Shown here piece by piece: positions 11,195 to 50,871 of a stretch of 53,797 nt of DNA. Source of the DNA: Candidatus Rokuibacteriota bacterium (lineage in GTDB: Bacteria > Methylomirabilota > Methylomirabilia > Rokubacteriales > CSP1-6); the NCBI GenBank assembly GCA_003220595.1, contig QHSZ01000086.1:1-53797 (forward strand). The letters are read 5' to 3'. Every line of letters begins with the position of its first letter. Within the stretch, counting starts at the first letter, position 1. The translations under genes and the position numbers were made by a program. Below the pieces are notes generated by a model, which was not told the DNA's origin, ran no database searches, and saw only the letters and a program-made list of their open reading frames with translations.

Positions 11195-11300
11195 CATGGG
11201 GGCCCCGACATGGCCCCCAAACCCCCCGGGTGGCTCGGGACGCCCCGGCGGAGCCGTGGCGCCCCTCGATAACCCGACGGGCCCCGACATGGCCCCCATG
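11195..11300. repeat. structured interspersed repeat, family B (plus partial second copy)
   Basis: 11195-11270 matches the reverse complement of 38609-38689; GGGCCCCGACATGGCCCCC is repeated at 11279-11297; outer 10-bp inverted repeat CATGGGGGCC/GGCCCCCATG. Confidence 0.85.
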
Positions 11301-34252: not shown

Positions 34253-35358
34253 CGCTTGGCGTCCGGCTCGGCGTGGACGGCCGGGAGCTCCGCCCCGGGG
34301 TGCGCACCGGGATCCGTCGCTACGTCACCGAGGTGCTGCGCGCGGCGTCGCGCGCGGGCTGGCCGTGCGTCGTCTACGGCGACGGCTCGACGGTGGTCGA
34401 CGAGACACTTCCCGGCGTCGCCACGCGCGTCCTCGCGGGGCGCCTGACGCAAGTGTGGGATCAGGTGCGGCTGCCCCGCGCGCTCCGCGAGGACGGCGCG
34501 ACGGTCTTCCTGTCGCCCTACTACAAGGGCCCGCTCGCCGCGCCCTGTCCGGTGGTGCTCACGATCCACGACCTCTTCTTCATCGGCTACCCTGGCCGGC
34601 GCCGGAGGCTCCATGACGCGACGCTGATCCGGCTGGCGCGGCTCTACGCCCGCCGCGCCGCCGCGATCGTCACCGACTCGGAGCACTCACGGCGCGAGAT
34701 CGCGGCGCGTCTCGGGATCGACCCGGCGCGGGTGACGGTGATCCCCGTCGCGCTCGGCCCGGAGTTCAGGGCGCCGGCACCGCCCGCCCCCGGGCGCGAC
34801 GGGATCGCTTCCTCCTACATTCTCTACGTGGGGAACTTCCGGCCGCACAAGAACCTGCCCCGGCTGCTCGCCGCGTACGCGGCGCTGCCCGCGGCGCTCC
34901 GGGCGGCGCACGCCCTGGTCCTCGCCGGAGGCGACCGCGCGGGCCGGCCCCTCCTGGAGGCGCGCGCGCGCGAGCTCGGCGTGGCGGACCGCGTCGTGTT
35001 CGCCGGGCTCGTGGCGGACCGCGACCTCCCGGGCCTGTACGCCGGCGCGACGGTCGCCGTTCTGCCCTCGCTCGAGGAGGGGTTCGGCCTGCCGGCGCTC
35101 GAGGCGATGGCGTGCGGGACGCCCGTCGTCGTGTCGAACCGCGGCGCCCTGCCCGAGCTCGTGGCCGACGCCGGGCTCGTCGCCGACGCCGCGCGCCCCG
35201 AAGAGATCGCCGGGGCGCTGGCGCGCGTGCTCGCGGACGGGGGGTTGCGGGCGGAGCTCCGGCGGCGCGGCCTCGCGCGCGCCTCACTCTACACCGCCGA
35301 CCGTACCGCCGGGCGCGTGCTCGAGCTGCTCGCCCGGGTCGCCGGGAGCCCTCGCTGA
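34249..35358 (+). CDS. glycosyltransferase family 4
   Basis: TGIRRY, TIHDL, PHKNL, EGFGLPALEAMACG. Confidence 0.9.
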   Translation: MTLGVRLGVDGRELRPGVRTGIRRYVTEVLRAASRAGWPCVVYGDGSTVVDETLPGVATRVLAGRLTQVWDQVRLPRALREDGATVFLSPYYKGPLAAPCPVVLTIHDLFFIGYPGRRRRLHDATLIRLARLYARRAAAIVTDSEHSRREIAARLGIDPARVTVIPVALGPEFRAPAPPAPGRDGIASSYILYVGNFRPHKNLPRLLAAYAALPAALRAAHALVLAGGDRAGRPLLEARARELGVADRVVFAGLVADRDLPGLYAGATVAVLPSLEEGFGLPALEAMACGTPVVVSNRGALPELVADAGLVADAARPEEIAGALARVLADGGLRAELRRRGLARASLYTADRTAGRVLELLARVAGSPR

Positions 35359-38300
35359 TGTGCGGCATCGCCGGCGTCATCGGCGAGGCGCCGCCGGACC
35401 TCCTGCCGGCGATGCTCGACCTGCTCCGCCATCGCGGGCCCGACGACATGGGCGTCCACGCCGAGCCCGGCGTGGCGCTCGGCATGACGCGGCTCGCGAT
35501 CATCGACCTCGTCACGGGGCGGCAGCCGATGAGCGACGCCGACGAGCGCTTCTGGCTCGTGTTCAACGGCGAGATCTACAACTTCCGCGAGCTCCGGGCG
35601 GAGCTCGAGGCGCGTGGTCGGCGATTCCGGACGCAGAGCGACACCGAGGTGATCCTCCAGGCGTACGCCACGTTCGGCGAGGCGTGCGTCGAGCGCCTGC
35701 GCGGCATGTTCGCGTTGGCCCTCTGGGACCGCGCGCGGCGGGCCCTGTTCCTCGCGCGCGACCGCCTGGGCAAGAAGCCCCTCTACTACTGGCAGCACGG
35801 CGGCCTCCTCGCCTTCGCGTCCGAGCCGAAGGCCCTCCTCCGGCACCCCGCCGTGTCGCGCGACGTCGACTGGGCGGCCTTCCACCACTACCTCGCCTTC
35901 GGCTATACGCCCGGGCGTAGCTCGATCTACGCGGGGATGCTGAAGCTCCCGCCGGCCCACACGGCCACGCTCGTCGACGGGCGGCTGACGCTCTCCCGCT
36001 ACTGGCAATTGCCGCCGGGTCCGGCGGCGGTGCTCCCGGCGTCGATCGAGGACACGGCCGCGACGCTGCGCGAGCAGCTGCGCGACGCGGTCAGGCTGAG
36101 GCTCGAGAGCGACGTGCCGCTCGGCGTCTTCCTGTCGGGCGGCATCGATTCGAGCGCGGTCGTGGCGAGCATGCGGGAGGTCACGAGCGGGCGCATCACG
36201 ACCGTCTCGATCGGCTTCGCCCGCGCCTTCGCCTCTTACGACGAGCTGCCCTACGCGCGGCTCGTCGCCGAGCGCTTCGGCACCGACCACCACGAGGAGG
36301 TCCTGGAGCCGAACGTCGCCGAGCTCTTGCCCACGATCGTCCGCCACTTCGACGAGCCGTTCGCCGACTCCTCCGCGGTGCCGACGTTCGCGGTCGCCCA
36401 GGCGACGGCGCGACTCGTGAAGGTCGCCCTCTCGGGCATCGGCGGCGACGAGACCTTCGGCGGCTACCCGCGCTACTTGGGCGTCCGCGCCTCCGAGCTC
36501 TACGCGCGGCTCCCGCGCGCGGCGCGCCGCGCGGCGGGCGCGCTCGCGCAAGCCCTGGTTCGCGAGTCGCGCACCAGCCGGAACCTGGGCGGCTGGGTGC
36601 GCCGCTTCGCCGCGGGGGCCGAGGCGCCGCTGCCCGAGCGCTACCTGCGCTGGACGCGCTTCTTCGGCGACGAGGAGCTGGCGCGGCTCGCGACGCCCGC
36701 GCTCGGCGCGCTGCTGACGTCCTCCGTGGACGCGGCGCAGCGGAGCGCGTTCGAGACCCACGGCCACGGCGACCCGCTGGACGGGGCCTTCCGCATCGAC
36801 CTCGCGACCTACCTGCCCGACGACCTCCTCGTCATGGCGGACCGGATGAGCATGGCGAACTCGCTCGAGCTGCGGGCGCCTTTCTGCGACCACCGGCTCG
36901 TCGAGGCGAGCCTGGCCATCCCGCCCTCGGTGAAGATCCCGGGGCGTCGGCTCAAGGGGCTCCTCAAGACGGCGTTCGCGGACGTCTTGCCCCGGCCGGT
37001 GCTCGAGCACCGGAAGCAAGGCTTCATGATCCCGCTCGGCGCGTGGCTCACCTCTGATCTCCGGGCGACGCTGGAGGACCTCCTGGCGCCCTCGCTCGTC
37101 GCCGCGCGGGGCCTCTTCGAGCCCGCGGAGGTGGAGCGGCTCCGGCGCGAGCACGCGGGCGGCGCCCGCGACCACGCCGACCGCCTCTTCACGCTCATGA
37201 TGACCGAGCTGTGGATCCGCGAGTACCTCGATCGCGGCGGGCAGTGGTCGCTCGGAGGTGCCCACGCGCGCGGGACCCGGGCGGGGCGCCCGGTGGTCGC
37301 GCGCCCGCGCACGCTCCGGATCCTCATGGTGTCCGACGTCTCACCCGCGCGGCCAGAGGGCGGGGCAGAGCGGATGCTCCGGGAGCAGGCGTCGCGGCTC
37401 GCCGCGCTCGGCCATCGCGTGCGCGTGGTCAGCCGTGCGCATGCGGACGGCGGTCAGGCGCCGCTCGACCTCGCCGGCGTTCACGTCCGCCACTTCCCGA
37501 TGGATCACCGGTCGGTGGCGGGCTTCGTCCGGACCTCGATCCTGGCGGCGCGGCGCGCGACGTCGGCGGACCTCGCCGAGAGCCCCGCGGACGTGCTGCA
37601 CCTCTACCAGCCGCTCGCGGGCTACGGCGCGCTGCTCTCGCCCGCGGCGCGTCGGCTCCCCATGCTCTACACCTTCCACTCGCCAGCACCCCTCGAGTAT
37701 CGCGCGCGCCACGGGATGACCCGCCGCCACCGCGGCGGCCTCGCGGGCGGCTTCGGCGCCGCCGCGCTCTGGCTGGTCGAGCGCGCCTGCCTCCGGCGCG
37801 CGCGCCTGATCCACGTGCTCAGCGACTTCTCGGCGGGCCAGCTCGAGACGCTCTACCGCATCCCGCCGGAGCGGATCGTGAAGATCCCGGGCGCGGTGGA
37901 GCTCGAGCGGTTCCGTCCGGCCGCCGACCGCGCCGCCGTCCGTCGGGCGCTCGGGCTGCCCGAGGGCCGCCCGCTGCTCCTCACCGTGCGGAACCTCGAG
38001 CGCCGCATGGGGCTCGACCTCCTGCTGCGCGCGATGGCGCGCGTGAAGGCACGCGTCCCCGAGGCGCTCCTGCTGCTCGGCGGCGCGGGCTCGCTCCGGG
38101 GCGAGCTCGAGGCCCTCGGCGCGGCCCTCGGGCTCGACGGCCACGTGCGCTTCCTCGGGTTCATCCCGGACCGCACGCTGCCGGCCTTCTACCAGGCCGC
38201 CGACGTCTTCGTCCTGCCGACGCGGGAGCTCGAGGGCTTCGGCCTCGTCACGGTCGAGGCGCTCGCGTGCGGGACGCCCGTCCTCGGCACGCGCGTCGGG

Positions 38301-38528
38301 GCGACGCCGGAGATCCTGGCGCCCCTCTCGCCCTCGCTCATCTTCCGCGGCCTCGCGCCGGAGACGCTGGCCGACGACCTCACGGGCCTGCTCGAGCGGC
38401 TGACCGACCCCGCGGACGCGGCCCGGCTGCGCGCGGAGTGCCGCCGGCACGCCGAGGCGCACTACGGGTGGGACCGCGCGATCGCCGCCCTCGCCGAGGC
38501 CCTCGAGCGCGTCGCGGGGATGCAGTGA
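35358..38528 (+). CDS. asparagine synthase-like glutamine amidotransferase fused to GT4
   Basis: MCGIAG, HRGPD, FNGEIYN, LSGGIDSS, GGDE, ELRAPF; in-frame C-terminal ILMVSD...GGAE...EGFGLVTVEALACG. Confidence 0.88.
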   Translation: MCGIAGVIGEAPPDLLPAMLDLLRHRGPDDMGVHAEPGVALGMTRLAIIDLVTGRQPMSDADERFWLVFNGEIYNFRELRAELEARGRRFRTQSDTEVILQAYATFGEACVERLRGMFALALWDRARRALFLARDRLGKKPLYYWQHGGLLAFASEPKALLRHPAVSRDVDWAAFHHYLAFGYTPGRSSIYAGMLKLPPAHTATLVDGRLTLSRYWQLPPGPAAVLPASIEDTAATLREQLRDAVRLRLESDVPLGVFLSGGIDSSAVVASMREVTSGRITTVSIGFARAFASYDELPYARLVAERFGTDHHEEVLEPNVAELLPTIVRHFDEPFADSSAVPTFAVAQATARLVKVALSGIGGDETFGGYPRYLGVRASELYARLPRAARRAAGALAQALVRESRTSRNLGGWVRRFAAGAEAPLPERYLRWTRFFGDEELARLATPALGALLTSSVDAAQRSAFETHGHGDPLDGAFRIDLATYLPDDLLVMADRMSMANSLELRAPFCDHRLVEASLAIPPSVKIPGRRLKGLLKTAFADVLPRPVLEHRKQGFMIPLGAWLTSDLRATLEDLLAPSLVAARGLFEPAEVERLRREHAGGARDHADRLFTLMMTELWIREYLDRGGQWSLGGAHARGTRAGRPVVARPRTLRILMVSDVSPARPEGGAERMLREQASRLAALGHRVRVVSRAHADGGQAPLDLAGVHVRHFPMDHRSVAGFVRTSILAARRATSADLAESPADVLHLYQPLAGYGALLSPAARRLPMLYTFHSPAPLEYRARHGMTRRHRGGLAGGFGAAALWLVERACLRRARLIHVLSDFSAGQLETLYRIPPERIVKIPGAVELERFRPAADRAAVRRALGLPEGRPLLLTVRNLERRMGLDLLLRAMARVKARVPEALLLLGGAGSLRGELEALGAALGLDGHVRFLGFIPDRTLPAFYQAADVFVLPTRELEGFGLVTVEALACGTPVLGTRVGATPEILAPLSPSLIFRGLAPETLADDLTGLLERLTDPADAARLRAECRRHAEAHYGWDRAIAALAEALERVAGMQ

Positions 38529-38758
38529 GCGACGCGCGCCTCGCTCGGGCCACCCACGGTGCACGCCGGCCTCGCGGACCCCGCTACAAATTGACCGGCG
38601 CGCGCCTGGTCGAGGAGCGCCACGGGTTTCCCGGGGCGCTCCGAGCGTGGGGGGGTCTGGGGGGCCATGTCGGGGCCCCCCACGTCGACCGATACGGCGC
38701 GCGCCTGGCTCAGGCCACCCACGGTGCACGCCGGCCTCGCGGACCCGGTTACCAGTGA
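38525..38758 (+). repeat. family A repeat copies with nested family B element; forms a 77-aa open frame coupled at both ends
   Basis: A copy 38525-38590, A 5' fragment 38591-38609, B element 38609-38689, A copy 38695-38758; GTGA overlaps at 38525 and 38755. Confidence 0.9.
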
Positions 38759-39915
38759 GCCTGCGCGTCCTGCACGTGATCACGCGCCTCACGCTCGGCG
38801 GCTCGTCGGAGAACACGCTGGCGTCGATCGTGGCGCTCCAGCGCGCGGGTCACGAGGTGGCGCTGGCGGTCTCGTTCCGTGAGTCCGACCCCTCGACGCT
38901 CGAGGCCGCGCGGCGGCGCGGCGTGCGGCTCGTCGACGTCCCGGCGCTCGGCCGCGCCGTGGCGCCGCTCCGTGACCTCGGCGCGCTCCTCCGGCTTCGC
39001 CGCATCATCGCCGCCGAGCGGCCGCACGTCGTCCACACGCACACGTCGAAGGCGGGCTTCGTCGGCCGGCTCGCGGCGCGGCTCATGCGGGTGCCCGCCG
39101 TCATCCACCAGCCCCACGGCCACGTCTTCTACGGCTACTGGGGGCGGTGCACGAGCGCGCTCTTCACGGCGCTGGAGCGGCGCGCCGCGCGCTGGAGCGA
39201 CCGGATCGTGACGCTGACGGACCGCGGCACCGAGGAGCACCTGGCGCGCGGCGTCGGGCGCCGGGCGCAGTACGTCAGCGTGCCGAGCGGCGTGCCGGTC
39301 GAGCGCCTGCGCGCGGCGGCGCCGTCGCGCGGGGCCGCGCGCGAGCAGCTCGGCCTTCCTCCGGCGGCGTTCATCGTCGCGGGGCTCGGCCGCTTCGTGC
39401 CGGTCAAGGGGTTCGACCTGCTCGTGGAGGCGCTGCCGGCTCTCTGCGCGGGCGTGCCCGCCGCGCACCTCGTGCTCGTCGGCGACGGCCCGGAGCGTCG
39501 GACGCTCGAGGCACGCGCCGCCGCGCTCGGCGTCGCCTCGCGGCTTCGGCTGAGCGGCGCGGTCGCAGATCCCACGCCGTGGCTCGCGGCTGCCGACGTC
39601 GTCGCCGCGCCCTCGCGCAACGAGGGGATGGGGCGCGCGATCGTGGAGGCGATGGCGCTCGGCCTCCCCGTCGTCGGCGCCGCGGTCGGCGGGATCCCCT
39701 CGGTCATCGTCGACGGCGAGAGCGGGCGCCTGGTCCCGCCCGAGGACGCGGTGGCGCTCGCGGAGGCACTCGTCGAGCTTGGCCGCGACGCGGGGCTCCG
39801 CGCGCGGCTCGGCGTGGAGGCCGTGGCCCGCGCGGAGGCGTTTTCGAGCGCGGTCGCCGACCGGAGGCTGTGTGAGGTGTACGCGGCGCTCGCCCGGGAG
39901 AAGCGGCTATCGTAG
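38755..39915 (+). CDS. glycosyltransferase family 4
   Basis: VLHVITRLTLGGSSENT, HTHTSKAG, PHGH, EGMGRAIVEAM. Confidence 0.9.
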   Translation: MSLRVLHVITRLTLGGSSENTLASIVALQRAGHEVALAVSFRESDPSTLEAARRRGVRLVDVPALGRAVAPLRDLGALLRLRRIIAAERPHVVHTHTSKAGFVGRLAARLMRVPAVIHQPHGHVFYGYWGRCTSALFTALERRAARWSDRIVTLTDRGTEEHLARGVGRRAQYVSVPSGVPVERLRAAAPSRGAAREQLGLPPAAFIVAGLGRFVPVKGFDLLVEALPALCAGVPAAHLVLVGDGPERRTLEARAAALGVASRLRLSGAVADPTPWLAAADVVAAPSRNEGMGRAIVEAMALGLPVVGAAVGGIPSVIVDGESGRLVPPEDAVALAEALVELGRDAGLRARLGVEAVARAEAFSSAVADRRLCEVYAALAREKRLS

Positions 39916-39959
39916 CGGGCACCGCGCGGCGTGGTCGGAAGGGTGCCTGGCGCCGCCGC

Positions 39960-41414
39960 GTGGCGCCGTTCGCCCTCCTGCTGCTCGGGGTCGCGCCCGC
40001 GGCCGCCGGCGGCGCCGAGTACGAGCGCCTGCCCGCGGTCCTCCACGTCCACTCCGACCTCACGACCGGCGATTTCCCGCTCGAGCAGCTCCAGACGATG
40101 GCGGAGAAGGCCGGCGTCGACGCGCTCCTGATGACCGAGAACTACCTGCTCCGCATCGAGTACGGGCTGCCGCCCTTCCGCGCGCTCACGCGGGTCGTGC
40201 GCGAGGAGCGCTCGGTCCTGGGCCTCGGGCTGGAGCACTACCTCCAGCGCGTCGCCGAGGCGCGCACCCGGAACCCGCGCGTCCTGCTCCTCCCGGGCGT
40301 CGAGGTGCTCCCGCACTACCACTGGACGGGCGCGCCGTGGCGGCTCGACATGGAGCTCCACGATACGCAGAAGAATCTCCTCGTCTTCGGCGTGACCGAC
40401 CCCGCGGCACTGCAGGCGCTCCCGGCCGCGAGCAACGCCGGCGCCGGCGCCTTCGACGCGGCGGCGGCGCTGGACCTCGTCCCCGTCCTCCTCGTCGTGC
40501 CCGGCGCGGTGCTCGTCGCGACGAAGCGTCGGGCCCTCGCGCGTGTCGGGCGCAGTGTCGTCGTCGTCCGCCGCCGGCGTCTCTTCCTGGGCGGGCTCCT
40601 GCTCGCCATCGGCGCGACGGCGTTCGTCCGCGCCTGGCCCTTCGTGACGGCGCCGTATCCGCCCTACCGCGAGCTCGGTTCCGGACCTCACCAGGCGCTC
40701 ATCGACTACGTGGAGCGGCTCGGGGGCGCCACCGTCTGGTCGTTCCCGGAGGCGCACGACAGCGGCGAACAGTGGGTCGGGCCCGTGCGGGTCTCCTGGC
40801 GGACGGACCCGTACACCGACGACCTCCAGCGGACCGCCCGCTACACGGCCTTCGGCGCGATCTACGAGGACACGACGCGCTTCGAGCTCCCGGGCGGCGG
40901 CTGGGACCGGCTCCTCTCGCAGTACACGGCGGGCGCGCGCAGCCGGCCCGCGTGGGCGGTGGGCGAGTCGGGCTTTCACGGATTGAGCGCGGGCAAGCGG
41001 GTGGGGCCGATCCAGACGGTGTTCCTCGTCGCCGAGCGGTCGGAGCGCGGCGTGCTCGAGGCCCTCCGGCAAGGCCGCATGTACGCGCTCCAGCGGTCCG
41101 CGGCCGCCGGGCTCGCGCTCGCCCAGTTCGCCGTGCGCGCGGGCGAGCGCGTCGCGATCTCGGGTGAGATGCTCGCCGCGCCCGCGGGGACCGCGCTCGA
41201 GGTCCACGTGGCCGTGGAGACGCTCGACGGCTCGGCGGGCGACGTGCGCGCGACGCTCGTCCGGAACGGCGCGGTCGTCGCGGTCTGGGCGGGGAGCACG
41301 CCCTTGCGCCAGGTCCATCGCGAGGTCTTCGACGGCGCGCCGGCCTTCTACCGCCTGGACGCGCGCGGGCCGGGCCGCCTCCTGTCCAACCCGATCTTCG
41401 TGAAGGCGCCGTGA
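39960..41414 (+). CDS. PHP-like metallohydrolase-domain membrane protein (start approximate)
   Basis: Signal peptide, LHVHSD, PGVEV, LEALRQGRMY, LSNPIF; two internal hydrophobic segments. Confidence 0.65.
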   Translation: MAPFALLLLGVAPAAAGGAEYERLPAVLHVHSDLTTGDFPLEQLQTMAEKAGVDALLMTENYLLRIEYGLPPFRALTRVVREERSVLGLGLEHYLQRVAEARTRNPRVLLLPGVEVLPHYHWTGAPWRLDMELHDTQKNLLVFGVTDPAALQALPAASNAGAGAFDAAAALDLVPVLLVVPGAVLVATKRRALARVGRSVVVVRRRRLFLGGLLLAIGATAFVRAWPFVTAPYPPYRELGSGPHQALIDYVERLGGATVWSFPEAHDSGEQWVGPVRVSWRTDPYTDDLQRTARYTAFGAIYEDTTRFELPGGGWDRLLSQYTAGARSRPAWAVGESGFHGLSAGKRVGPIQTVFLVAERSERGVLEALRQGRMYALQRSAAAGLALAQFAVRAGERVAISGEMLAAPAGTALEVHVAVETLDGSAGDVRATLVRNGAVVAVWAGSTPLRQVHREVFDGAPAFYRLDARGPGRLLSNPIFVKAP

Positions 41415-41445
41415 CGGGCGGGCCTCGCGCGGCCGAGGCTCGCCG

Positions 41446-42159
41446 GTGAAGGTCGCGATCCACCAGCCGCACTACCTCCCGTGGCTCGGCTACGTCGCCA
41501 AGTGGGCCGCCGCGGACTGCTTCATCTTCCTCGACACCGTGCAGTACGAGAAGAACGGCTGGCAGAACCGGAACCGGATCAAGACGAGCCAGGGCCCGCA
41601 GTGGCTGACCGTGCCCGTGCAGGCGCGCCTGGCGACGGCGATCCGCGACGTCGGCGTCGATGCCGCCCAGCCCTGGGCCGCCCGCCACCTGCGCGCGATC
41701 GAGCTCGGCTATGCGCGGGCGCCGCACTTCGCCCGCTACCGTGACGGCCTCGGCGCCTTCTACGCGCGCGCGTGGGACCGGCTGGCGCCGCTCGCGGCCG
41801 CGAGCGCCGAGTGGCTGGCGCGGGCGCTCGGGGTGACGACGCCGGTCACGCTCGCGTCGGCGCTCGACCTCGGCCCCGCACCGGTCGAGGACGCGACCGC
41901 TCGCCTCGTGGCCCTCTGCCGGGCCGTGGGCGCCGACACCTACCTCGCGGGGCGGGACGGCGCGCGCTACATGGATCTCGCCCAGTTCCGGACGGCCGGG
42001 ATCGCCGTGGAGGCCCAGGAGTACGCGCACCCCGTGTACGCCCAGCTCCACGGGGAATTCGTCACTGCTCTCTCGGCCCTTGACATATTATTGATGCACG
42101 GAGATGAGGCCCTCGCCATCCTGTGCCGCGGCAACGCGTGGGCGCGCCTCGCGCCCTGA
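41446..42159 (+). CDS. WbqC-like family protein
   Basis: AIHQPHYLPWLGY, WQNRNRI, WLTVPV, YAHPVYAQ, LSALDIL. Confidence 0.9.
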   Translation: MKVAIHQPHYLPWLGYVAKWAAADCFIFLDTVQYEKNGWQNRNRIKTSQGPQWLTVPVQARLATAIRDVGVDAAQPWAARHLRAIELGYARAPHFARYRDGLGAFYARAWDRLAPLAAASAEWLARALGVTTPVTLASALDLGPAPVEDATARLVALCRAVGADTYLAGRDGARYMDLAQFRTAGIAVEAQEYAHPVYAQLHGEFVTALSALDILLMHGDEALAILCRGNAWARLAP

Positions 42160-42169
42160 GTCCGCCTAA

Positions 42170-42784
42170 ATGAACATCCTCGCGCTCGGCGCCCACCCCG
42201 ACGACATCGAGTACGGCTGCGGTGGCATGCTCGCCAAGTACGCGCGCAAGGGGAACGGCGTCTACATGTTCATCGCGTCCGACGGCGCGCTCGGTGGCGA
42301 CGCGGAGGTGCGGCGCCGGGAGCAGAAGGATGCGGCCCGGACTCTCAGCGTCCGCGAGGTGTTCTGGGGCGAGTACCAGGACACCGAGGTGCCGCTCTCG
42401 CGCGAGCTGATCGTGCGCATCGAGGCGGTGATCCGGCAGATCGAGCCGCGGATGATCTTCGTGAACTCGCCCGAGGACACGCACCAAGACCACCGTCACC
42501 TGGCCCAGTGCGCCATGTCCGCGACGCGCTACGTCCCGAACTTCCTCTTCTTCGAGGTCCCGTCGACGGTCGAGTTCCGGCCGAACTGCTACACCGACAT
42601 CGCCGACGTGCTCGACATCAAGCTCGCGAGCCTCGAGGCCCACCGCTCGCAGGTGGCGAAGACGAACATCGAGGACCTCACCATTCTCGAGCTGGCGAAG
42701 TCGTCGGCTAACTTCCGCGGCATCCAGGCGCGGGTGAAGTACGCCGAGGCATTCCAGTCGGTCAGGCTGCTCCTCAACCTCTAG
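42170..42784 (+). CDS. PIG-L/LmbE family deacetylase
   Basis: GAHPDDIE, HQDH, HRSQ, AEAF. Confidence 0.9.
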   Translation: MNILALGAHPDDIEYGCGGMLAKYARKGNGVYMFIASDGALGGDAEVRRREQKDAARTLSVREVFWGEYQDTEVPLSRELIVRIEAVIRQIEPRMIFVNSPEDTHQDHRHLAQCAMSATRYVPNFLFFEVPSTVEFRPNCYTDIADVLDIKLASLEAHRSQVAKTNIEDLTILELAKSSANFRGIQARVKYAEAFQSVRLLLNL

Positions 42785-42794
42785 CCGGATCCCG

Positions 42795-43835
42795 GTGATC
42801 GCCCACTCGAGGCCCACGCTCAGCGAGGAGGACGTCGGGCGCGTGGCGCGTGTCGTCCGTTCGGGTCACCTCGCGCAGGGAGAGGAGGTCGCCGCCTTCG
42901 AGGGGGAGCTGGCGCCCCGGCTCGGCGTGCCGGCGGCCGCCGCGGTGAGCTCGGGCAGCGCCGCCCTCGAGCTGGCGCTGCGCGCCCTCGGCGCGGGCGC
43001 GGGCGATGAGGTCATCGTGCCCACCTACGCGTGCGACGCGCTCCACCACGCGGTGACCCGGTGCGGCGCGACCCCGGTGCTGGCCGACGCCGACCCCGAG
43101 ACGCTCGGCCTGTCGCCCAAGGACGCGGCGCGGCGCCGCACGCGACGCACCCGCGCGATCGTCGCCGTCCACCCTTTCGGGCTCGCGGTCGGCCTCGACG
43201 AGCTCCTCGCGCTCGGCGTCCCGCTCGTCGAGGACTGCGCCCAGGCGATCGGCGCGGTCGCCGACGGCCGGCCCGCGGGCTCCCGGGGCGCGCTCTCCGT
43301 GTGCTCGTTCTACGCGACCAAGCTTCTCACCACGGGCGAGGGCGGCGCCGTCGCCGGTCCCGCCGACCACGTCGCGCGGGTGCGCGACGCGCGCGACTAC
43401 GACGAGCGCGCGGACCTCGCCCCGCGCTTCAACTACAAGCTGACGGATATGCAGGCGGCCCTCGGCCGCGGCCAGCTCACCCGGCTCGACGCCTTCCTGG
43501 CCCGCCGACGCGAGATCGCCGCGCGCTACCGCGGCGCCCTCGCCGGGGTCGCCCGCTGCCGCGTGCCCGCCGACGCGGGCGCCCGCCACGTCTACCACCG
43601 GTTCGTCGTGCGCGTGGAGCGGCCGCTCGAGCGCGTCATCGAGGAGCTCGCCCGGCGCGGCGTGAGCGCGCGGCGCCCGGTCTTCCGCCCGATCCACCGG
43701 GCGCTCGGACTCGACGGTTACCGGGACGCCGAGCGGCTGTGGGAGACGTGCCTGTCGCTCCCGTGCTACCCGCTCCTGACCGACGCCGAGGCGGACGCGG
43801 TCGCGGCGGCGCTCGCGGCGGCGCTGGCGGCGTGA
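42795..43835 (+). CDS. DegT/DnrJ/EryC1/StrS family aminotransferase
   Basis: SSGSAAL, EDCAQA, SFYATKLLTTGEGG, NYKLTD. Confidence 0.92.
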   Translation: MIAHSRPTLSEEDVGRVARVVRSGHLAQGEEVAAFEGELAPRLGVPAAAAVSSGSAALELALRALGAGAGDEVIVPTYACDALHHAVTRCGATPVLADADPETLGLSPKDAARRRTRRTRAIVAVHPFGLAVGLDELLALGVPLVEDCAQAIGAVADGRPAGSRGALSVCSFYATKLLTTGEGGAVAGPADHVARVRDARDYDERADLAPRFNYKLTDMQAALGRGQLTRLDAFLARRREIAARYRGALAGVARCRVPADAGARHVYHRFVVRVERPLERVIEELARRGVSARRPVFRPIHRALGLDGYRDAERLWETCLSLPCYPLLTDAEADAVAAALAAALAA

Positions 43836-44953
43836 TCGATCGCTTCACGCTCCCCCGCCTCGTGCTCCCGGCGGTGCTCCTGCTGTCGCCGGTGCGCGAC
43901 GCGTTCGTGGCTGCGCGCCTGCTGTGGCTCTACCTCGCGCTGCTCGCGTGGGGCCTGGCGTTCTTCGTGACGCCGCTCGTGCGGGGTGTCGCCCACTGGC
44001 GGGGCGTGCTCGACCTGCCCGCGGAGCGCAAGGTGCACCGCGTCGCGACGCCGCTGCTCGGGGGCGTCGCGGTCTGGGCCGCGCTCGCGGCGACCGTGCT
44101 CGCCAACTTCGAGTTCTCGCGCGGCCTGAAGGGCGTCGCGGTCGGCGGGGCGATCGTCGTCGCCCTCGGTGTCCTCGACGACGTGTTCGACGTGCCCGCG
44201 CGACTCAAGCTCGCCGGCCAGGTGGCGGCGGCGGCGGCGGCGATCGGGTACGGCGTCGTCCTCGACGCGGTGCCGACCTGGGTCCCCGGCGTCGTCTGGC
44301 TGAACGTGCTCCTCACCACCCTCTGGTTCCTCACGGTGACGAACTCGATCCAGTTCCTCGACGGCATGGACGGGCTGGCCGCGGGCCTCGGCGTCATCGC
44401 CGGCATCTTCTTCAGCCTCGTGTCGCTCCAGACCGGACAGCGCTACCTCATGTTCCTCTCGGCGGCGCTCGTGGGGGCGTGCCTCGGGTTCCTTCCGTAC
44501 AACTTCCGGCCGGGCGGCGCCACGATCTTCCTCGGCGACAGCGGCGCCTCGTTCATCGGCTTCACGCTGGCGGGGCTCGCGGTGATGGGCGTGTGGGCCC
44601 AGAACAATCCCCTCGTGTCGCTGCTCACCCCCATGCTGATCCTGGGCGTGCCGCTCTTCGACATCGCCTTCGTCGGCGTCGGGCGCGTGGTCACCGGCAA
44701 GGTGCACTCCCTTGCCGAGTGGCTCGCCTACACGGGCAAGGACCACATCCACCACCGGTTCCAGGCCCTCGGCCTCACGAAGACCCAGAGCGTGCTGCTG
44801 ATCTTCTTCATCGCGGCGACGCTCGGCCTCTCGGCCATCCTCTTGAAGGACGCGGCTCCGCACGAGGTCGTGCTCGTGCTCGTCCAGGCGGCGTGCGTGC
44901 TGGCGATCGTCGCCATCCTCGAGGGGATCGGCCGCGTCCGCCCGCGGGACTGA
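43832..44953 (+). CDS. undecaprenyl-phosphate GlcNAc-1-phosphate transferase (WecA/TagO family)
   Basis: RKVH..ATPLLGG, GVLDD, FLDGMDGL, IFLGDSG, DHIHH. Confidence 0.9.
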   Translation: MIDRFTLPRLVLPAVLLLSPVRDAFVAARLLWLYLALLAWGLAFFVTPLVRGVAHWRGVLDLPAERKVHRVATPLLGGVAVWAALAATVLANFEFSRGLKGVAVGGAIVVALGVLDDVFDVPARLKLAGQVAAAAAAIGYGVVLDAVPTWVPGVVWLNVLLTTLWFLTVTNSIQFLDGMDGLAAGLGVIAGIFFSLVSLQTGQRYLMFLSAALVGACLGFLPYNFRPGGATIFLGDSGASFIGFTLAGLAVMGVWAQNNPLVSLLTPMLILGVPLFDIAFVGVGRVVTGKVHSLAEWLAYTGKDHIHHRFQALGLTKTQSVLLIFFIAATLGLSAILLKDAAPHEVVLVLVQAACVLAIVAILEGIGRVRPRD

Positions 44954-44978
44954 GCGCCCGCGTATGTATAATGTGCCG

Positions 44979-45845
44979 ATGAATGTCCGCAAGGGCGTGT
45001 TCCCGGCGGCGGGGCTCGGCACGCGCTTCCTGCCCGCGACGAAGGCGCAGCCCAAGGAGATGCTCCCGCTCGTCGACAAGCCGATGATCCAGTACGTCGT
45101 CGAGGAGGCGGTGGCCTCGGGGCTGAATGAGATCATCATCGTCACCGGCCGCGGCAAGCGCGCGATCGAGGACCACTTCGACGCTTCGTTCGAGCTCGAG
45201 TACTACCTGAACGACCGCGGTAAGACCGAGGAGCTCGCCCAGATCAAGACGATCTCCGAGCTGGCCTCGGTCTCCTACGTCCGGCAGAAGGAGCCCCTCG
45301 GCCTCGGCCACGCGATCCTCTGCGCCCGCGCGCTCGTGGGCGAGGAGCCCTTCGCCGTGTTCCTCGGCGACGACATCATCGGGGCGGCGCCGACCCCGTG
45401 CATGCGTCAGCTCCTCGACGCCTTCGAGCGTTTCGGCGGGCCCGTGCTGGCCGTCGAGCGCGTGCCGCGGGCGCGCCTCGGCCAGTACGGCGTGATCGCG
45501 CCGCGTCCGATCGGCGGCAACGTCTACGAGATCCTCGACCTCGTCGAGAAGCCGCGGCCATCGGAGGCGCCCTCGGACCTCGCGATCATCGGCCGCTACG
45601 TGCTGACGCCCGAGCTGTTCTCGATCCTGGCCGAGACGGCGGCGGGCAAGAACGGCGAGATCCAGCTGACCGACGCGCTCCGGACCCTGCGCGCGCGGCG
45701 CCCCATGTACGCCGTCGAGTTCGAGGGGCGGCGCTACGATACCGGCGACAAGCTGGGCTTCCTCAAGGCGACGGTCGAGTTCGCGCTGGCGCGCCCCGAC
45801 CTCGCCGACGAGTTCCGGACCTACCTCAAGGCGCTCAAGCTCTAG
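44979..45845 (+). CDS. galU: UTP--glucose-1-phosphate uridylyltransferase
   Basis: PAAGLGTRFLPATKAQPKEMLP, QKEPLGLGHA, VEKP, EIQLTDA. Confidence 0.95.
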   Translation: MNVRKGVFPAAGLGTRFLPATKAQPKEMLPLVDKPMIQYVVEEAVASGLNEIIIVTGRGKRAIEDHFDASFELEYYLNDRGKTEELAQIKTISELASVSYVRQKEPLGLGHAILCARALVGEEPFAVFLGDDIIGAAPTPCMRQLLDAFERFGGPVLAVERVPRARLGQYGVIAPRPIGGNVYEILDLVEKPRPSEAPSDLAIIGRYVLTPELFSILAETAAGKNGEIQLTDALRTLRARRPMYAVEFEGRRYDTGDKLGFLKATVEFALARPDLADEFRTYLKALKL

Positions 45846-45934
45846 CCTCTCGCGCGCGGCGCGTGGTTTGACTTGCCCCCGGGGTTCTGACACACTTTTC
45901 GGAACCTTCCGAGTACGGGAAGGCCGCACATATA

Positions 45935-47146
45935 ATGGCGAAGACCCCGAAGCGCCCGTTCCATACAGCCTCCGACGCCGAGATCAAGAGCGGCGAGGTC
46001 TCGGACGTCTACTTCGCCCGCACGGTCCAGATCCTGACCCACCGCAAGGACACGAAGCGCGTCAAGGCCGAGGTTTACCTCAAGTCCCTGCCCGAGGACT
46101 GGCGCTGGGGCGTCCTCGCCGGCGTCGAGGAGGCCGCGAGCCTGCTCGAGGGCCTGCGCGTGGACGTGCTGGCGATGGACGAGGGGACGCTCTTCGAGCC
46201 GTACCAGCCCGTGCTCCGCATCGAGGGGACCTACGTCGAGTGGGCGCAATACGAGACCGCGCTCCTCGGTCTCCTCTGCCAGGCCTCCGGCATCGCGACC
46301 AAGGCGGCGCGGTGTAAGAAGGCCGCGGGCGAGCGTCAGGTGATCTCGTTCGGCGCGCGCCGGATGCATCCGTCGCTCGCGCCCATGATCGAGCGCAACG
46401 CGTTCATCGGCGGCTGCGACGGCGTCGCCGTCACCAAGTCCGCCGAGCTGATCGACGCCGACCCGACGGGCACGATTCCGCACTCGCTCGTGCTCATGGT
46501 CGGGGACACGGTCGAGGCCCTGCGCGCGTTCCACGACGTCGTGGACACGAAGGTGCGCCGCGTGGCGCTCATCGACACGCTCCAGGACGAGAAGTTCGAG
46601 GCGATCCGCGTGGCCGAGGCGCTCGGCAAGGACCTCTACGCGGTCCGGCTCGACACGCCCTCGTCACGGCGGGGTGACTTCTACCGGATCATCGAGGAGG
46701 TCCGTTGGGAGCTCGACCTCCGCGGCTTCGGTCACGTGAAGATCCTGGCGTCGGGCGGGATCGACGAGTACGAGATCCTCAACCTGAACCCGGTCGTCGA
46801 CGGCTACGGCGTCGGCACCTCGATCGCCAACGCGCCGGTGCTGAACTTCGCGCTCGACATCATGGAGATCGAGGGGCGGCCCGTGGCCAAGCGCGGCAAG
46901 TGGTCGGGCGCGAAGGCGGTCTACCGCCGCCGCGGCACGAGCGAGACGCTCGTGCTGCCCGAAGGCAAGAAGCCCCCCGGGCGCGACGGGGCGACGTGGG
47001 AGCCCCTCCTCAAGCCGCTCGTCGCCGCGGGGCGCATCGCCCGCGACCTCCCGCCGCCGCGCACCCTGCGCGACTTCGTGCTGGACCAGCTCACGCGCGT
47101 GCCGCTCGACACGCTCCGACGCCAGGCACTCCGCCGCGACTTCTGA
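45935..47146 (+). CDS. pncB: nicotinate phosphoribosyltransferase
   Basis: DVYF, YETALLG, SFGARR, GTIPHS, VRLDT, ASGG, GVGT. Confidence 0.88.
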   Translation: MAKTPKRPFHTASDAEIKSGEVSDVYFARTVQILTHRKDTKRVKAEVYLKSLPEDWRWGVLAGVEEAASLLEGLRVDVLAMDEGTLFEPYQPVLRIEGTYVEWAQYETALLGLLCQASGIATKAARCKKAAGERQVISFGARRMHPSLAPMIERNAFIGGCDGVAVTKSAELIDADPTGTIPHSLVLMVGDTVEALRAFHDVVDTKVRRVALIDTLQDEKFEAIRVAEALGKDLYAVRLDTPSSRRGDFYRIIEEVRWELDLRGFGHVKILASGGIDEYEILNLNPVVDGYGVGTSIANAPVLNFALDIMEIEGRPVAKRGKWSGAKAVYRRRGTSETLVLPEGKKPPGRDGATWEPLLKPLVAAGRIARDLPPPRTLRDFVLDQLTRVPLDTLRRQALRRDF

Positions 47147-47168
47147 GCGCGGGTGTGCGTCTCACGCC

Positions 47169-47954
47169 ATGAGCATCCTCGACGACATCGTCCGCGACAA
47201 GCGCCAGGAAATCGCGCGCCGCCGGGCCGCGACCCCGCGCGCCGAGCTCGAGCGCCGGGTCGCGCAGGCCGGGCCCGCCCGCGATTTCGAGGGCGCGCTC
47301 GCAGGAAGGCCCGGGCGCGCGCGCCTGATCGCCGAGGTGAAGAAGGCGTCACCCTCCCGCGGCGTCCTCGCGGGCGACCTCGACCCGCTCGCCCTCGCGC
47401 GGAGCTACGCCGCGGCGGGCGCCCACGCGATCTCGGTCCTCACCGACGAGAAGTACTTCCAGGGGAGCCTCGACCTCCTCGCGCCGATCCGCGCGGCCGT
47501 GCCTCTGCCCCTCCTCCGCAAGGATTTCACGCTCGACGAGTACCAGCTCTGGGAGTCGCGCGCGGCCGGCGCCGACGCGGTGCTGCTGATCGTCGCGATC
47601 CTGGCGCCCGCGGGTCTGCGCGACCTCGTCGCCGCGGCGAAGGGCCTCGGCCTCGCGGCGCTGATCGAGTGCCACACCGCGGGCGAGCTCGACGCGGCGC
47701 TCGGCGCGGGCGCCCGGATCGTCGGCCTCAACAACCGCGACCTCCGCACCTTCGAGACGCGCATCGAGACGACGCTCGAGCTCCTGCCGTTGATCCCGCC
47801 GGGGCCGATCGTCGTCAGCGAGAGCGGGTTCTTCACCGGCGACCAGGTCCGGCGGGTGGTGGACGCGGGCGCCCACGCCGTGCTCGTCGGCGAGGGGCTC
47901 GTCCGCGCCGTCGACGTCGGGGCGAAGCTCCGGGAGCTCACGCTCGATGGTTAG
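47169..47954 (+). CDS. trpC: indole-3-glycerol phosphate synthase
   Basis: IAEVKKASPSRG, SVLTD, LRKDF, NNRDL, SESG. Confidence 0.95.
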   Translation: MSILDDIVRDKRQEIARRRAATPRAELERRVAQAGPARDFEGALAGRPGRARLIAEVKKASPSRGVLAGDLDPLALARSYAAAGAHAISVLTDEKYFQGSLDLLAPIRAAVPLPLLRKDFTLDEYQLWESRAAGADAVLLIVAILAPAGLRDLVAAAKGLGLAALIECHTAGELDAALGAGARIVGLNNRDLRTFETRIETTLELLPLIPPGPIVVSESGFFTGDQVRRVVDAGAHAVLVGEGLVRAVDVGAKLRELTLDG

Positions 47955-48594
47955 GGTCAAGGTCTGCGGGATCACGAACCTCGAGGACGCGAGGGTCGCG
48001 GTCGAGGCGGGCGCCGACGCCCTCGGCTTCATCTTCGTCGAGGGGACGCCGCGGTTCGTCACGCCCGAGCAGGCGGCGCCGATCATCCGCGCCCTGCCGC
48101 CGTTCGTCACGTCCGTCGGCGTCTTCTGGGATCACCCGGCGGGGCACGTGAAGGCCGTCGCCGAGGCGTGCGGGCTCCGCGCGCTGCAGTTCCACGGCGA
48201 CGAGCGGCCGGAGGACCTCGAGGGCTACGCGCTGCCGGTGATCAAGACCCTCAAGCTCGCGCCCTCGGACGCGCTCGGGGGTCGCCCACCGTGGACGCCG
48301 CTCATCGCCGAACGCTACCGGAAGTGCGCGGCGGCCCTCCTGCTCGACAGCGCCGCGCGCTGGAGCGAGGGTGAGCCGCGCCAGCCCATCGAGTGGACGG
48401 CGGCGCGCGACCTGACCGGCCACCGCTGGCGGGTCGTCCTGTCGGCCGGGCTGACGCCGGAAAACGTGGGGCGGGCGGTTGCGACGGCACGGCCGTACGC
48501 CGTGGACGTGAACTCCGGCGTGGAGACGCAGCCGGGACGCAAGGACCCGGACAAGGTCTGGCGCTTCGTCGCCGAAGCCAAGGGCGTGCGATGA
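47947..48594 (+). CDS. trpF: phosphoribosylanthranilate isomerase
   Basis: [36 protein letters not shown]. Confidence 0.92.
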
Positions 48595-48791
48595 GCGACG
48601 CGCCCCTGACTCGGGCCACCCACGGTTCACGCCGGCCTCGTGGACCCCGCTACCAAATGAGCGACGCGCGCCTGTTTCAGGCCACCCACGGTTCGCGCCG
48701 GCCTCGTGGACCCCGCTACCAAATGAGCGACGCGCGCCTGTTTCAGGCCACCCACGGTTCGCGCCGGCCTCGTGGACCCCGCTACCGATGA
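48591..48791 (+). repeat. three tandem 66-bp family A repeats forming a 66-aa ORF coupled to trpF and trpB
   Basis: Units start at 48591, 48657 and 48723; ATGA overlaps at 48591 (trpF stop) and 48788 (trpB start). Confidence 0.93.
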
Positions 48792-50005
48792 AGCGCGCGC
48801 GGCCTCGGCCCGCCGCCCTGCCCGACGCGCAGGGGCACTTCGGCCGGTTCGGCGGCCGCTTCGTGCCCGAGACGCTCATGGCCCCGCTCGTCGAGCTCGA
48901 GCGCGCGTACGCCCGGGCGCGCCGCGACCCCGCGTTCCAGGCGCGCCTCGCCGGGCTCCTCCGGGACTACGCCGGGCGGCCCACCCCGCTCTACTTCGCG
49001 ACGCGCCTCAGCGAGCAGGCCGGCGGCGCCCGGATCTACCTGAAGCGCGAGGACCTCTGTCACACCGGCGCCCACAAGATCAACAACGTCCTCGGCCAGG
49101 CGCTCCTCGCCGAGCGGATGGGCAAGCGGCGGGTGATTGCCGAGACCGGCGCGGGCCAGCACGGCGTCGCGACCGCGACCGCCGCGGCGCTCCTGGGCCT
49201 CGCGTGCGAGGTGTACATGGGCGCGGAGGATATCGAGCGGCAGGCGCTCAACGTCTTCCGGATGCGCCTGCTCGGCGCGCGCGTCGTCCCGGTCGAGTCG
49301 GGGAGCCGCACGCTCAAGGACGCGATCAACGAGGCGCTGCGCGACTGGGTCACGAACGTGCGCACGACCTACTACCTCCTCGGCTCGGCGCTCGGCCCGC
49401 ACCCGTACCCGGTGATGGTCCGCGACTTCCACGCCGTCATCGGCGCGGAGACGCGGCGGCAGGCCCGCCAGGCGCTCGGCCGGCTTCCGGACGCGCTGGT
49501 CGCGTGCGTCGGCGGCGGCTCGAACGCGATCGGGCTCTTCCACCCGTTCATCGGCGACCGCCGGGTCAGGATCATCGGCGTCGAGCCCGGCGGCGAGGGG
49601 CTCGCAACGGGCCGGCACGGCGCCTCGATGACCGCGGGGCGCGTGGGGGTGCTGCACGGCTGCATGAGCTACCTGCTCCAGAGCGACGACGGTCAGATCG
49701 CCACCGCCCACTCGATCTCGGCGGGGCTCGATTACCCGGGCGTCGGGCCCGAGCACGCCTACTACCGCGACGCGGGCCGCTTCGAGTTCGTGGCCGTGAC
49801 GGACGAGGAGGCGCTCGAGGGCTTCGAGGCGCTCACGCGCCTCGAAGGCATCATGCCGGCGCTCGAGTCGGCCCACGCCGTCGCGCACGCGATGCGGCTC
49901 GCCAAGACCCTGCCGCGCGCGAAGGCGATCGTCGTGGGCCTCTCCGGGCGCGGCGACAAGGACGTGCACGTCGTCGCCAAGGCCCTCGGCACGGAGGTCA
50001 AATGA
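48788..50005 (+). CDS. trpB: tryptophan synthase beta subunit
   Basis: [50 protein letters not shown]. Confidence 0.97.
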
Positions 50006-50067
50006 GCGACGCGCGCCTGGCTCAGGCCACCGACGGTGCACGCCGGCCTCGCGGACCCCGCTACAAA
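50002..50067 (+). repeat. family A repeat fused in frame to the 5' end of trpA
   Basis: ATGAGCGAC...CCGCTACAAA encodes [22 protein letters not shown], followed by TTG ACC CGC of TrpA. Confidence 0.92.
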
Positions 50068-50871
50068 TTGACCCGCCTTGGCGAGACCTTCGAGGGCCTC
50101 CGGGCCCGCGGCGAGCGCGCGCTCGTCGCGTACCTGACCGCGGGCGACCCCTCGCTCGCCGACACGCGCCGGCTCGTGCTCGAGGCGGCGCGGCGCGGCG
50201 CCGACGTGGTCGAGCTCGGCGTGCCGTTCTCCGATCCGCTCGCCGACGGGCCCGTCATCCAGCGCGCGGCGATGCGGGCCCTGGACCGCGGGACGACGCT
50301 GCCGCGGGTGCTCGAGACCGTCGCCACGCTCCGGGCGGAGACCAACGTGCCGATCGCGCTGCTCACGTACTACAACCCCGTCCTCGCCTTCGGCCTGAAG
50401 GCCTTCGCCCGCACCGCGGCCGACGCGGGCGTGGACGGTGTGATCGTCGCCGACCTGCCGCCCGAGGAGGCGGACCCCCTCGCGGCGGAAGCAGAGGCGG
50501 CGGGCCTCGACCTCGTCGCCATGGTCGCGCCGACGTCGACGCCCGAGCGCGTGCGCCTCATCGCGCGCCGGAGCCGCGGCTTCATCTACCTCGTCGCGCT
50601 GACCGGCGTGACCGGCGAGCGGCGGGAGGTGCCGCGCGATCTGGCGGCGCAGATCCGCGCGCTCCGGCGGGTCACGCGCATGCCCGTGTGCGTCGGCTTC
50701 GGCATCTCGCGGCCGGAGCACGTCGAGGCCGTGGGGCGGCTGGCGGACGGCGTGATCGTCGGCTCGGCGATCGTGCGCCTCGTCGAGGAGCGGGCCGGGT
50801 CGGCCGGCCTCGTGGAGGCCGTCGGCGACTTCGTCGCGGCGCTGAAGGCGCCGCTCCGTGGGCCGAGGTAG
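50002..50871 (+). CDS. trpA: tryptophan synthase alpha subunit (22-aa repeat-derived extension; alternative start TTG 50068)
   Basis: [43 protein letters not shown]. Confidence 0.95.

Follow-up and report, generated by a model that had tools for sequence, protein, structure and literature searches.

RTGA-bounded repeats of a Rokubacteria lineage resemble mycobacterial MIRUs and may relay ribosomes between operon genes

A 53,797-nt stretch of Rokubacteria DNA (the window) carries, at three junctions between co-directional genes, copies of a short repeat that we call family A. With a probability of roughly three in four, we take family A to be a set of short, non-autonomous interspersed repeats of a Rokubacteria lineage that act in the manner of MIRUs (interspersed repetitive units of mycobacteria) and are explained by a ribosome relay, in which ribosomes would pass through the repeat from one operon gene to the next. 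This mechanism had been proposed in an earlier note made from the letters of the window alone. Judged by sequence comparison, it is plausible and the best supported of the explanations that we considered. The window is contig C150 of genome G000, a metagenome-assembled genome (MAG) of Rokubacteria with 4,062,528 bases in 380 contigs and a G+C content of 70.7%. Completeness of G000 was scored at 98.5% and contamination at 3%, and the TrpB protein encoded in the window shares 88-90% identity with its counterparts in MAGs named Candidatus Rokuibacteriota.

The consensus unit of family A is 65 nt long, and a second ATGA closes the unit. Because this length is 3n+2, the frame opened by the ATG at position 1 closes at the TGA of the ATGA that follows. 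Unit is joined to unit, or unit to the next gene, by 4-base start/stop overlaps (−4 links). A 66-nt unit, unlike the 65-nt one, reads through in frame. A profile made from 57 full-length genomic copies was run over the G000 contigs and gave 123 matches at 91 loci, with one unit at 68 loci, two at 14 and three at 9. The periods within arrays were 65 nt (18 cases), 66 nt (7), 64 nt (3) and 62 nt (2). Bounding tetranucleotides at the 37 loci with −4 links at both ends were ATGA/ATGA at 24, GTGA/ATGA at 7, and TTGA/ATGA, GTGA/GTGA and ATGA/GTGA at 2 each. Several units sit at contig ends (C156, C47, C23). Between loci, copy identity is as high as 98%, whereas orthologous flanks between congeners are 77-89% identical, indicating either recent spread or homogenisation of copies.

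The earlier note had described six stop-free copies at three loci of the window, all in sense orientation, with each locus beginning at the RTGA (R being A or G) whose TGA ends the upstream gene. The profile bore out this description. It placed six copies on the + strand, like the flanking genes, with E values from 4e-14 to 7e-19, at 38526-38592, 38695-38757 (5' part replaced), 48591-48657, 48657-48723, 48723-48790 and 50002-50069. The 66-mer given in the note matched 38525-38590 with 3 mismatches and 50002-50067 with 1 mismatch, and 100 shuffles gave 0 matches. At each locus the upstream TGA lies inside the RTGA of the first unit (38526-38528, 48592-48594 and 50003-50005). The flanking genes were identified by Pfam as PRAI/trpF, PALP/trpB and Trp_syntA, and at locus 1 as an Asn_synthase and GT4 fusion followed by a GT4 gene. 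The features of the three loci are listed below, with open reading frame abbreviated as ORF.

35358-38528, + strand: asparagine synthase and GT4 glycosyltransferase fusion upstream of locus 1, stop TGA 38526-38528 (own gene call; Pfam Asn_synthase, GATase_7, Glycos_transf_1)
38525-38590, + strand: repeat unit A1 of locus 1, opening with GTGA, the GTG being the relay-ORF start that overlaps the upstream TGA (profile E 7.6e-18)
38591-38694, + strand: 104-nt unit of the U family, sharing its frame with A1 (87 nt at 96.6% identity to the U reference from contig C123)
38695-38758, + strand: repeat unit A2 with a changed 5' head; its closing GTGA (38755-38758) holds the relay stop TGA and the next-gene start GTG (profile E 4.2e-14)
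38755-39915, + strand: GT4 glycosyltransferase gene downstream of locus 1 (own gene call, Pfam)
47947-48594, + strand: trpF (PRAI), stop TGA 48592-48594 (own gene call, Pfam)
48591-48791, + strand: array of three A units (66+66+65 nt and a closing ATGA), relay ORF from ATG 48591 to TGA 48789-48791 (profile, chain walk)
48788-50005, + strand: trpB, start ATG 48788 within the closing ATGA, stop TGA 50003-50005 (own gene call, Pfam)
50002-50071, + strand: single 66-nt A unit closed by TTGA, its ATG 50002 overlapping the trpB stop; fusion class (profile, chain walk)
50068-50871, + strand: trpA from the homologous start TTG 50068 (own gene call, orthologue comparison)

Two of the loci had been said to end in a new RTGA overlap and the third to run in frame into trpA, and this is what we found. 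The repeat frame closes with a TGA that overlaps the next start at 38755-38758 (GTGA) and at 48788-48791 (ATGA). At locus 3 the single 66-nt unit runs in frame and stop-free into trpA, 66 nt upstream of the homologous start TTG 50068. Read from ATG 50002, trpA gains 22 N-terminal residues, and the Pfam Trp_syntA match starts at residue 30 of this long form. The array at locus 2 (66+66+65 nt) forms one 66-codon ORF from 48591 to 48791. One correction to the note concerns locus 1, which turned out not to be two plain copies but a composite of one A unit, the 104-nt U unit (38591-38694) and an A unit with an altered 5' part. This composite spans 234 nt and forms a single 77-codon relay ORF from GTGA to GTGA with −4 links at both ends. 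The gene upstream of it (35358-38528) is itself one ORF of 1056 residues, in which a glutamine-dependent asparagine synthase is joined to a GT4 glycosyltransferase. Elsewhere in the window, a coding region (6674-8455) contains direct repeats whose periods are 102 and 204 nt; they are typical of 34-residue TPR-like repeats and ordinary.

Next, we tabulated the position, strand and frame of family A throughout G000. Genes were called with our own codon log-odds model, trained on long ORFs with high G+C at third codon positions. It gave 4213 genes and 93% coding, and recovered the window genes that Pfam confirms. Relative to the downstream gene, A units are in sense orientation at 76 of 89 loci; for the upstream gene the figure is 70 of 87 (binomial p of 5e-12 and 8e-9). 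Both neighbours are co-directional with the repeat at 65 of the 91 loci. For these 65 loci we traced chains of consecutive small ORFs starting at the upstream stop, permitting links of −4, −1 and 0 to +2, and classed each locus as relay, fusion or fail. Relay chains led to the downstream start at 44 loci and in-frame fusions were found at 3, the trpA locus being one of them, while 18 loci failed. Many of the failing loci are arrays that begin past an untranslated spacer yet end on the downstream start. When a restart was tolerated up to 15 nt beyond a stop, the downstream gene was reached at 52 of the 65 loci, and 103 of the 122 links in those 52 chains were −4 overlaps. A looser first version of the chain test had been replaced as too lenient, with 21 to 37 of 65 frameshifted controls passing it, mostly as in-frame fusions.

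Random deletions of 1, 2 or 3 nt within the arrays left 12, 17 and 43 relay chains, respectively, compared with 44 in the intact arrays. Chains are thus lost with 1- or 2-nt deletions and persist with 3-nt deletions, indicating that the relay property is frame-dependent. Co-directional spacers of 45-400 nt (n = 696) served as background. Relay chains were present in 34 of 51 spacers containing a sense unit, as against 60 of 618 spacers containing none of the three repeat families described in this work (odds ratio 18.6, p 7e-20). The genome-wide tabulation that the earlier note had proposed shows copies that are non-random in strand, in frame and in their relation to gene junctions (76 of 89 sense; 44 relays and 3 fusions among 65).

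A further property of the downstream genes concerns the Shine-Dalgarno motif. At 5-20 nt before the start, GGAG or GAGG is present for 36.6% of native −4 starts and for 35% of the starts that follow long spacers, as against 15% of random 16-mers. Where an A element precedes the gene, only 2 of 44 starts have the motif (p 9e-7). A gene start in this position would be reached only by ribosomes terminating 1 base past its start codon, and a ribosome relay is the natural reading of such a loss.

Junctions that lack the repeat were found in related genomes. The repeat was not found in any of 80 trp loci from other species. At trpF-trpB and trpB-trpA, the two junctions for which a comparison with empty orthologues had been suggested, the relatives carry a single RTGA: ATGA (L011) or GTGA (L012) at the former, and ATGA (L011, L067) or GTGA (L015) at the latter, in the closest relatives. 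The junction of locus 1 consists of one GTGA in G001 and G002, which belong to the same genus, and of GTGA, 226 nt and GTGA in G000. A further ten G000 loci were set against G001, G002 and G004; the empty site was a single NTGA at 7, CTGATG at 1, without RTGA at 1 and uninterpretable at 1. Filled and empty junctions can be aligned with relatives base for base. Copy number also varies, with 2, 1 and 0 units at junction C179:2346 in G000, G002 and G004, respectively. At C179:8226 the insertion sits at an ATGA start codon that does not overlap the upstream gene. Locus 1 and a locus on contig C255 have GTGA at both ends, though the family consensus is ATGA; GTGA at both bounds, together with a GTGA empty site, favours a true target duplication. 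As far as these aligned junctions can tell, family A is insertion-polymorphic, with a 4-base direct repeat as its bounds. Among arrays in relatives, examined at 9 loci with a rough ORF filter, the upstream stop lay in the first NTGA at 3; L005, from the unpublished genome G010, underlies none of our claims.

Two junctions in relatives deserve separate description. L120 (G002:C36:12080-12460), orthologous to G000 C300:4038-4171, is occupied by three units of a longer, different variant that has only the 3' core and the ATGA ends in common with the G000 copy, so that the same junction has been colonised more than once or the copies have been converted. At L112 (G001:C13:63230-63380), where C348:951 has its empty site, a natural ORF of 5 codons runs from ATGA to ATGA, which amounts to a minimal relay free of the repeat.

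The mechanism that we favour would run as follows. The NTG of the first RTGA would open a frame of about 21 codons, the TGA of the next RTGA would close it, and the NTG of that same RTGA would be the next start. A single unit, a tandem array or a composite of sister families could occupy either an RTGA stop/start overlap or an RTGA start codon. An inserted unit would swap one termination-reinitiation event for a chain of them, and the downstream gene, its own Shine-Dalgarno motif gone, would still be supplied with ribosomes. Copies landing elsewhere in genes would be lost, and such loss would produce the bias in strand, frame and junction. We infer that the frame is translated, that coupling is preserved and that the family has spread by transposition. 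As an interpretation, the relay in the earlier note has gained from the genome-wide strand and junction bias, the empty RTGA sites and the loss of Shine-Dalgarno motifs; what it has lost is the novelty of the behaviour.

Several observations weigh against a relay maintained in this way. The chain test failed at 18 of the 65 co-directional loci, the repeat runs antisense to the downstream gene at 13 of 89, and 8 loci are antisense between genes. Just 15 of the 91 loci are pure cases, in which the first NTGA holds the upstream stop, the terminal NTG is the predicted start and only A units lie in between. At 70% GC, a 22-codon frame is by our estimate open by chance about two times in three. As the copies are young, the relay property would be largely inherited from the consensus and would not be independent proof of selection. 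Gene and start calls were made with our own crude codon-bias caller and not with a standard annotator. The intergenic insertion at C348:15468 has no RTGA at its empty site, implying that the RTGA may belong to the element itself instead of arising by duplication of the target. Finally, no transposase or mobilising enzyme was tied to family A. In particular, the transposase family Y1/RAYT (PF01797) had 0 matches in G000, which is 98.5% complete and in which the controls respond; this result also counts against the structural alternative that follows.

Family A could instead be a structural element of the kind represented by repetitive extragenic palindromic (REP) sequences and bacterial interspersed mosaic elements (BIMEs), with selection acting on an RNA or DNA hairpin (an mRNA stabiliser, an attenuator or a protein binding site) and with the frame and the RTGA ends as by-products. 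The unit is indeed an imperfect palindrome over its full length. However, its folding is no better than that of shuffles (z of −0.06 in sense and −0.88 in antisense), and consensus folding gave weak structures (−6.4 and −11.6 kcal/mol) with zero compensatory pairs. Across genera, some 40 nt at the core of the unit are conserved and the 5' part is variable, other hairpin repeats exist in G000, and both IS110-family transposase genes of G000 adjoin an A unit, as IS110 elements do with REP sequences (PMC1525189; bioRxiv 10.1101/2025.01.17.633520, in the available text of both). Against this, a strand bias of 85% and base-exact stop/start boundaries are unexpected for REPs. An Rfam scan of 38300-50300 with E up to 1 returned only a chance microRNA match at 50111-50160, which also speaks against selection on structure. 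We therefore regard a structural element as unlikely.

The frame is open in nearly all sense copies, with proper starts and stops, as it would be if the repeat were a real small-protein gene or repeat domain, that is, a functional 22-residue peptide rich in Arg and Pro that had been duplicated over the genome. Codon differences from the consensus, on the other hand, comprise 69 synonymous and 133 non-synonymous changes, variation is evenly spread over the codon positions (79:54:85), and the peptide of the unit is neither conserved nor under constraint. Three database proteins are similar to the 66-residue array product, but these are the only matches among 5.8 billion proteins and all are unnamed; two relay products had no Pfam match, and the copy number and presence of the unit differ among congeners. 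A functional peptide is accordingly very improbable. Still less credence is given to an artefact of assembly or binning that misplaced repeats at the contig joins of a fragmented MAG. Although G000 is in 380 contigs with 3% contamination and several units lie at contig ends, the window loci are deep within a contig of 53.8 kb and their flanking genes are intact, filled and empty junctions align to relatives base for base, and family A recurs with identical boundaries in 58 other genomes.

In addition to family A, G000 contains two sister families, U and D. The U unit is 104 nt long, again 3n+2, and runs from ATGA to ATGA, which makes U the clearest further example of the family A design. It forms its own tandem arrays and relay ORFs, and is present in relatives without family A (G003, G005, G008, G014). 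The D unit is about 65 nt long (roughly 60-70 nt), possesses a perfect 7-bp GC stem and occurs in both orientations. On the gene strand its chains lead to the downstream start at 8 of 12 loci, by the looser test and with mixed link spacings; in the other orientation it extends the relay ORFs of A units to the next ATGA. A, U and D combine in frame into composite relay ORFs. The G/C-rich palindromic core of U was also seen alone just past gene ends, at convergent ends in 3 of 4 cases, where it has a terminator-like look. A fourth hairpin family was not counted as the same design, as ATGA starts are present in only some of its copies. Positions are as follows.

Window 38591-38694; G000 C231:13137-13376, C325, C195, C280 and C74:4289-4382: U family
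Window 11198-11218; G000 C20:11198-11222, C371:3268-3288 and C50:28596-28616: solitary U cores
G000 C159:12656-12834, C61:3512-3606, C153, C151, C29:23351-23420 and others: D family
G000 C308:3495-3622, C129:3592-3792 and C10:5667-5787: fourth hairpin family, intergenic, with a period of about 70 nt and a long perfect GC stem
G000 C156:1-1500, C75:1557-2968 and C47:3483-3520: IS110 sites

Of 125 genomes of the same taxonomic family, 58 yielded family A; of 75 genomes from 11 other families of the phylum, 0 did. A smaller sample gave 14 of 24 for the same family and 0 of 16 for others. These tallies count the unpublished genomes G010, G024 and G122, without which 58 of 125 becomes 56 of 123 and 14 of 24 becomes 12 of 22. 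Among sequencing runs, 19 DNA entries contained at least half of the sequence words of the trp stretch, and no RNA run was listed.

The only two IS110-family (DEDD) transposase genes of G000 both adjoin the 5' boundary of an A unit. On C156 the IS110 insertion falls between the ATGA and the remainder of the unit, and C75 and C47 have a common insertion sequence (IS) end beside a GTGA. This looks like IS110-type targeting of the A repeat, as known for REP sequences, which IS110 elements are described as targeting (PMC1525189; bioRxiv 10.1101/2025.01.17.633520, in the text available). Beside the C156 insertion lies a 170-nt copy (C156:1493-1662), 99% identical to window 38360-38529, the 3' end of the gene upstream of locus 1. 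It is joined there to an unrelated upstream gene; either a duplication that travelled with the repeat or a chimeric assembly could account for it.

We tentatively extend these results to a broader proposal, which we hold to be somewhat less than an even bet: coupling junctions may be a general safe harbour for selfish DNA, on whose RTGA-bounded 3n+2 design the apparently unrelated families A, U and D would have converged, with array length as a possible rheostat. If so, each added unit would be an extra termination-reinitiation step, and array length could tune the protein ratio of an operon in an evolvable manner. Together with MIRUs, the Rokubacteria families would then make up a cross-phylum class of translation-adapted mobile repeats. 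An independent family in an uncultured soil phylum would also make the design a general one and not a mycobacterial oddity. The many filled and empty pairs and the sister families provide material for comparative work on target choice, and the downstream genes are natural test cases for termination-reinitiation without a Shine-Dalgarno motif. In practical terms, the repeats fragment assemblies, and in Rokubacteria genomes they give rise to false small ORFs and misplaced start calls; they are also possible copy-number markers for population tracking.

How does family A compare with known repeat systems? Rickettsia palindromic elements, which are inserted in frame inside proteins, had been named in the earlier note as a precedent, and they share with family A the survival of repeats inside translated sequence. 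They proved to be a poorer analogy, as the A unit is 3n+2, forms a separate ORF and is fused in frame at just 3 of 65 loci. Bacterial MITEs (miniature inverted-repeat transposable elements), such as Correia and ERIC, are similar in being non-autonomous, in showing insertion polymorphism with short direct repeats and in being co-transcribed with neighbouring genes, the last of which is presumed for family A. By contrast, family A is much shorter, has no clear terminal inverted repeats and apparently no parent IS, and is fixed in position to stop and start codons. The only inverted repetition seen in the unit is the imperfect palindrome over its full length; no parent element was found, and the two IS110 copies abut units but contain none. 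REP sequences and BIMEs with their REP-associated tyrosine transposases (RAYTs) are likewise short, GC-rich imperfect palindromes that are abundant between genes, often within operons, and serve as IS110 targets. Family A differs from them in its strong sense bias, weak fold and coding-frame boundaries, and in the lack of a Y1/RAYT gene in G000.

The closest likeness is to MIRUs, reportedly first described by Supply et al. in 1997 (Mol Microbiol 26:991). To our knowledge, no repeats other than MIRUs have been described as making use of stop/start overlaps, and the questions of how MIRUs move and why they are tolerated have never been settled. An open-access literature search for such elements outside mycobacteria returned nothing relevant. 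The suggestion that the behaviour was undescribed nevertheless falls, since the available text of two reports already presents MIRUs in this way. They are mobile mycobacterial repeats whose insertion sites are start codons and whose ORF is coupled to the gene with a spacing of −4 nt (PMC12548453). They measure 40-100 nt, number 40-50 copies, are transcribed polycistronically and have ORF ends that overlap adjacent genes, and their filled and empty sites differ by tetranucleotide direct repeats (PMC3184786, Delihas 2011). As far as these descriptions go, family A shares units of 40-100 nt at tens of loci between co-directional operon genes, in gene orientation; an internal ORF coupled at −4 nt to the neighbouring gene, with insertion at start codons; and tetranucleotide direct repeats at filled and empty sites, variable tandem number and no known transposase. 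The two differ in host, family A belonging to Rokubacteria and not to Actinomycetota, and the likeness is one of architecture, drawn from descriptions of MIRUs and not from sequence. G000 further possesses the sister families A, U and D in composite relay ORFs and IS110-family elements at the unit boundary. On this comparison, family A is probably convergent with MIRUs rather than homologous to them.

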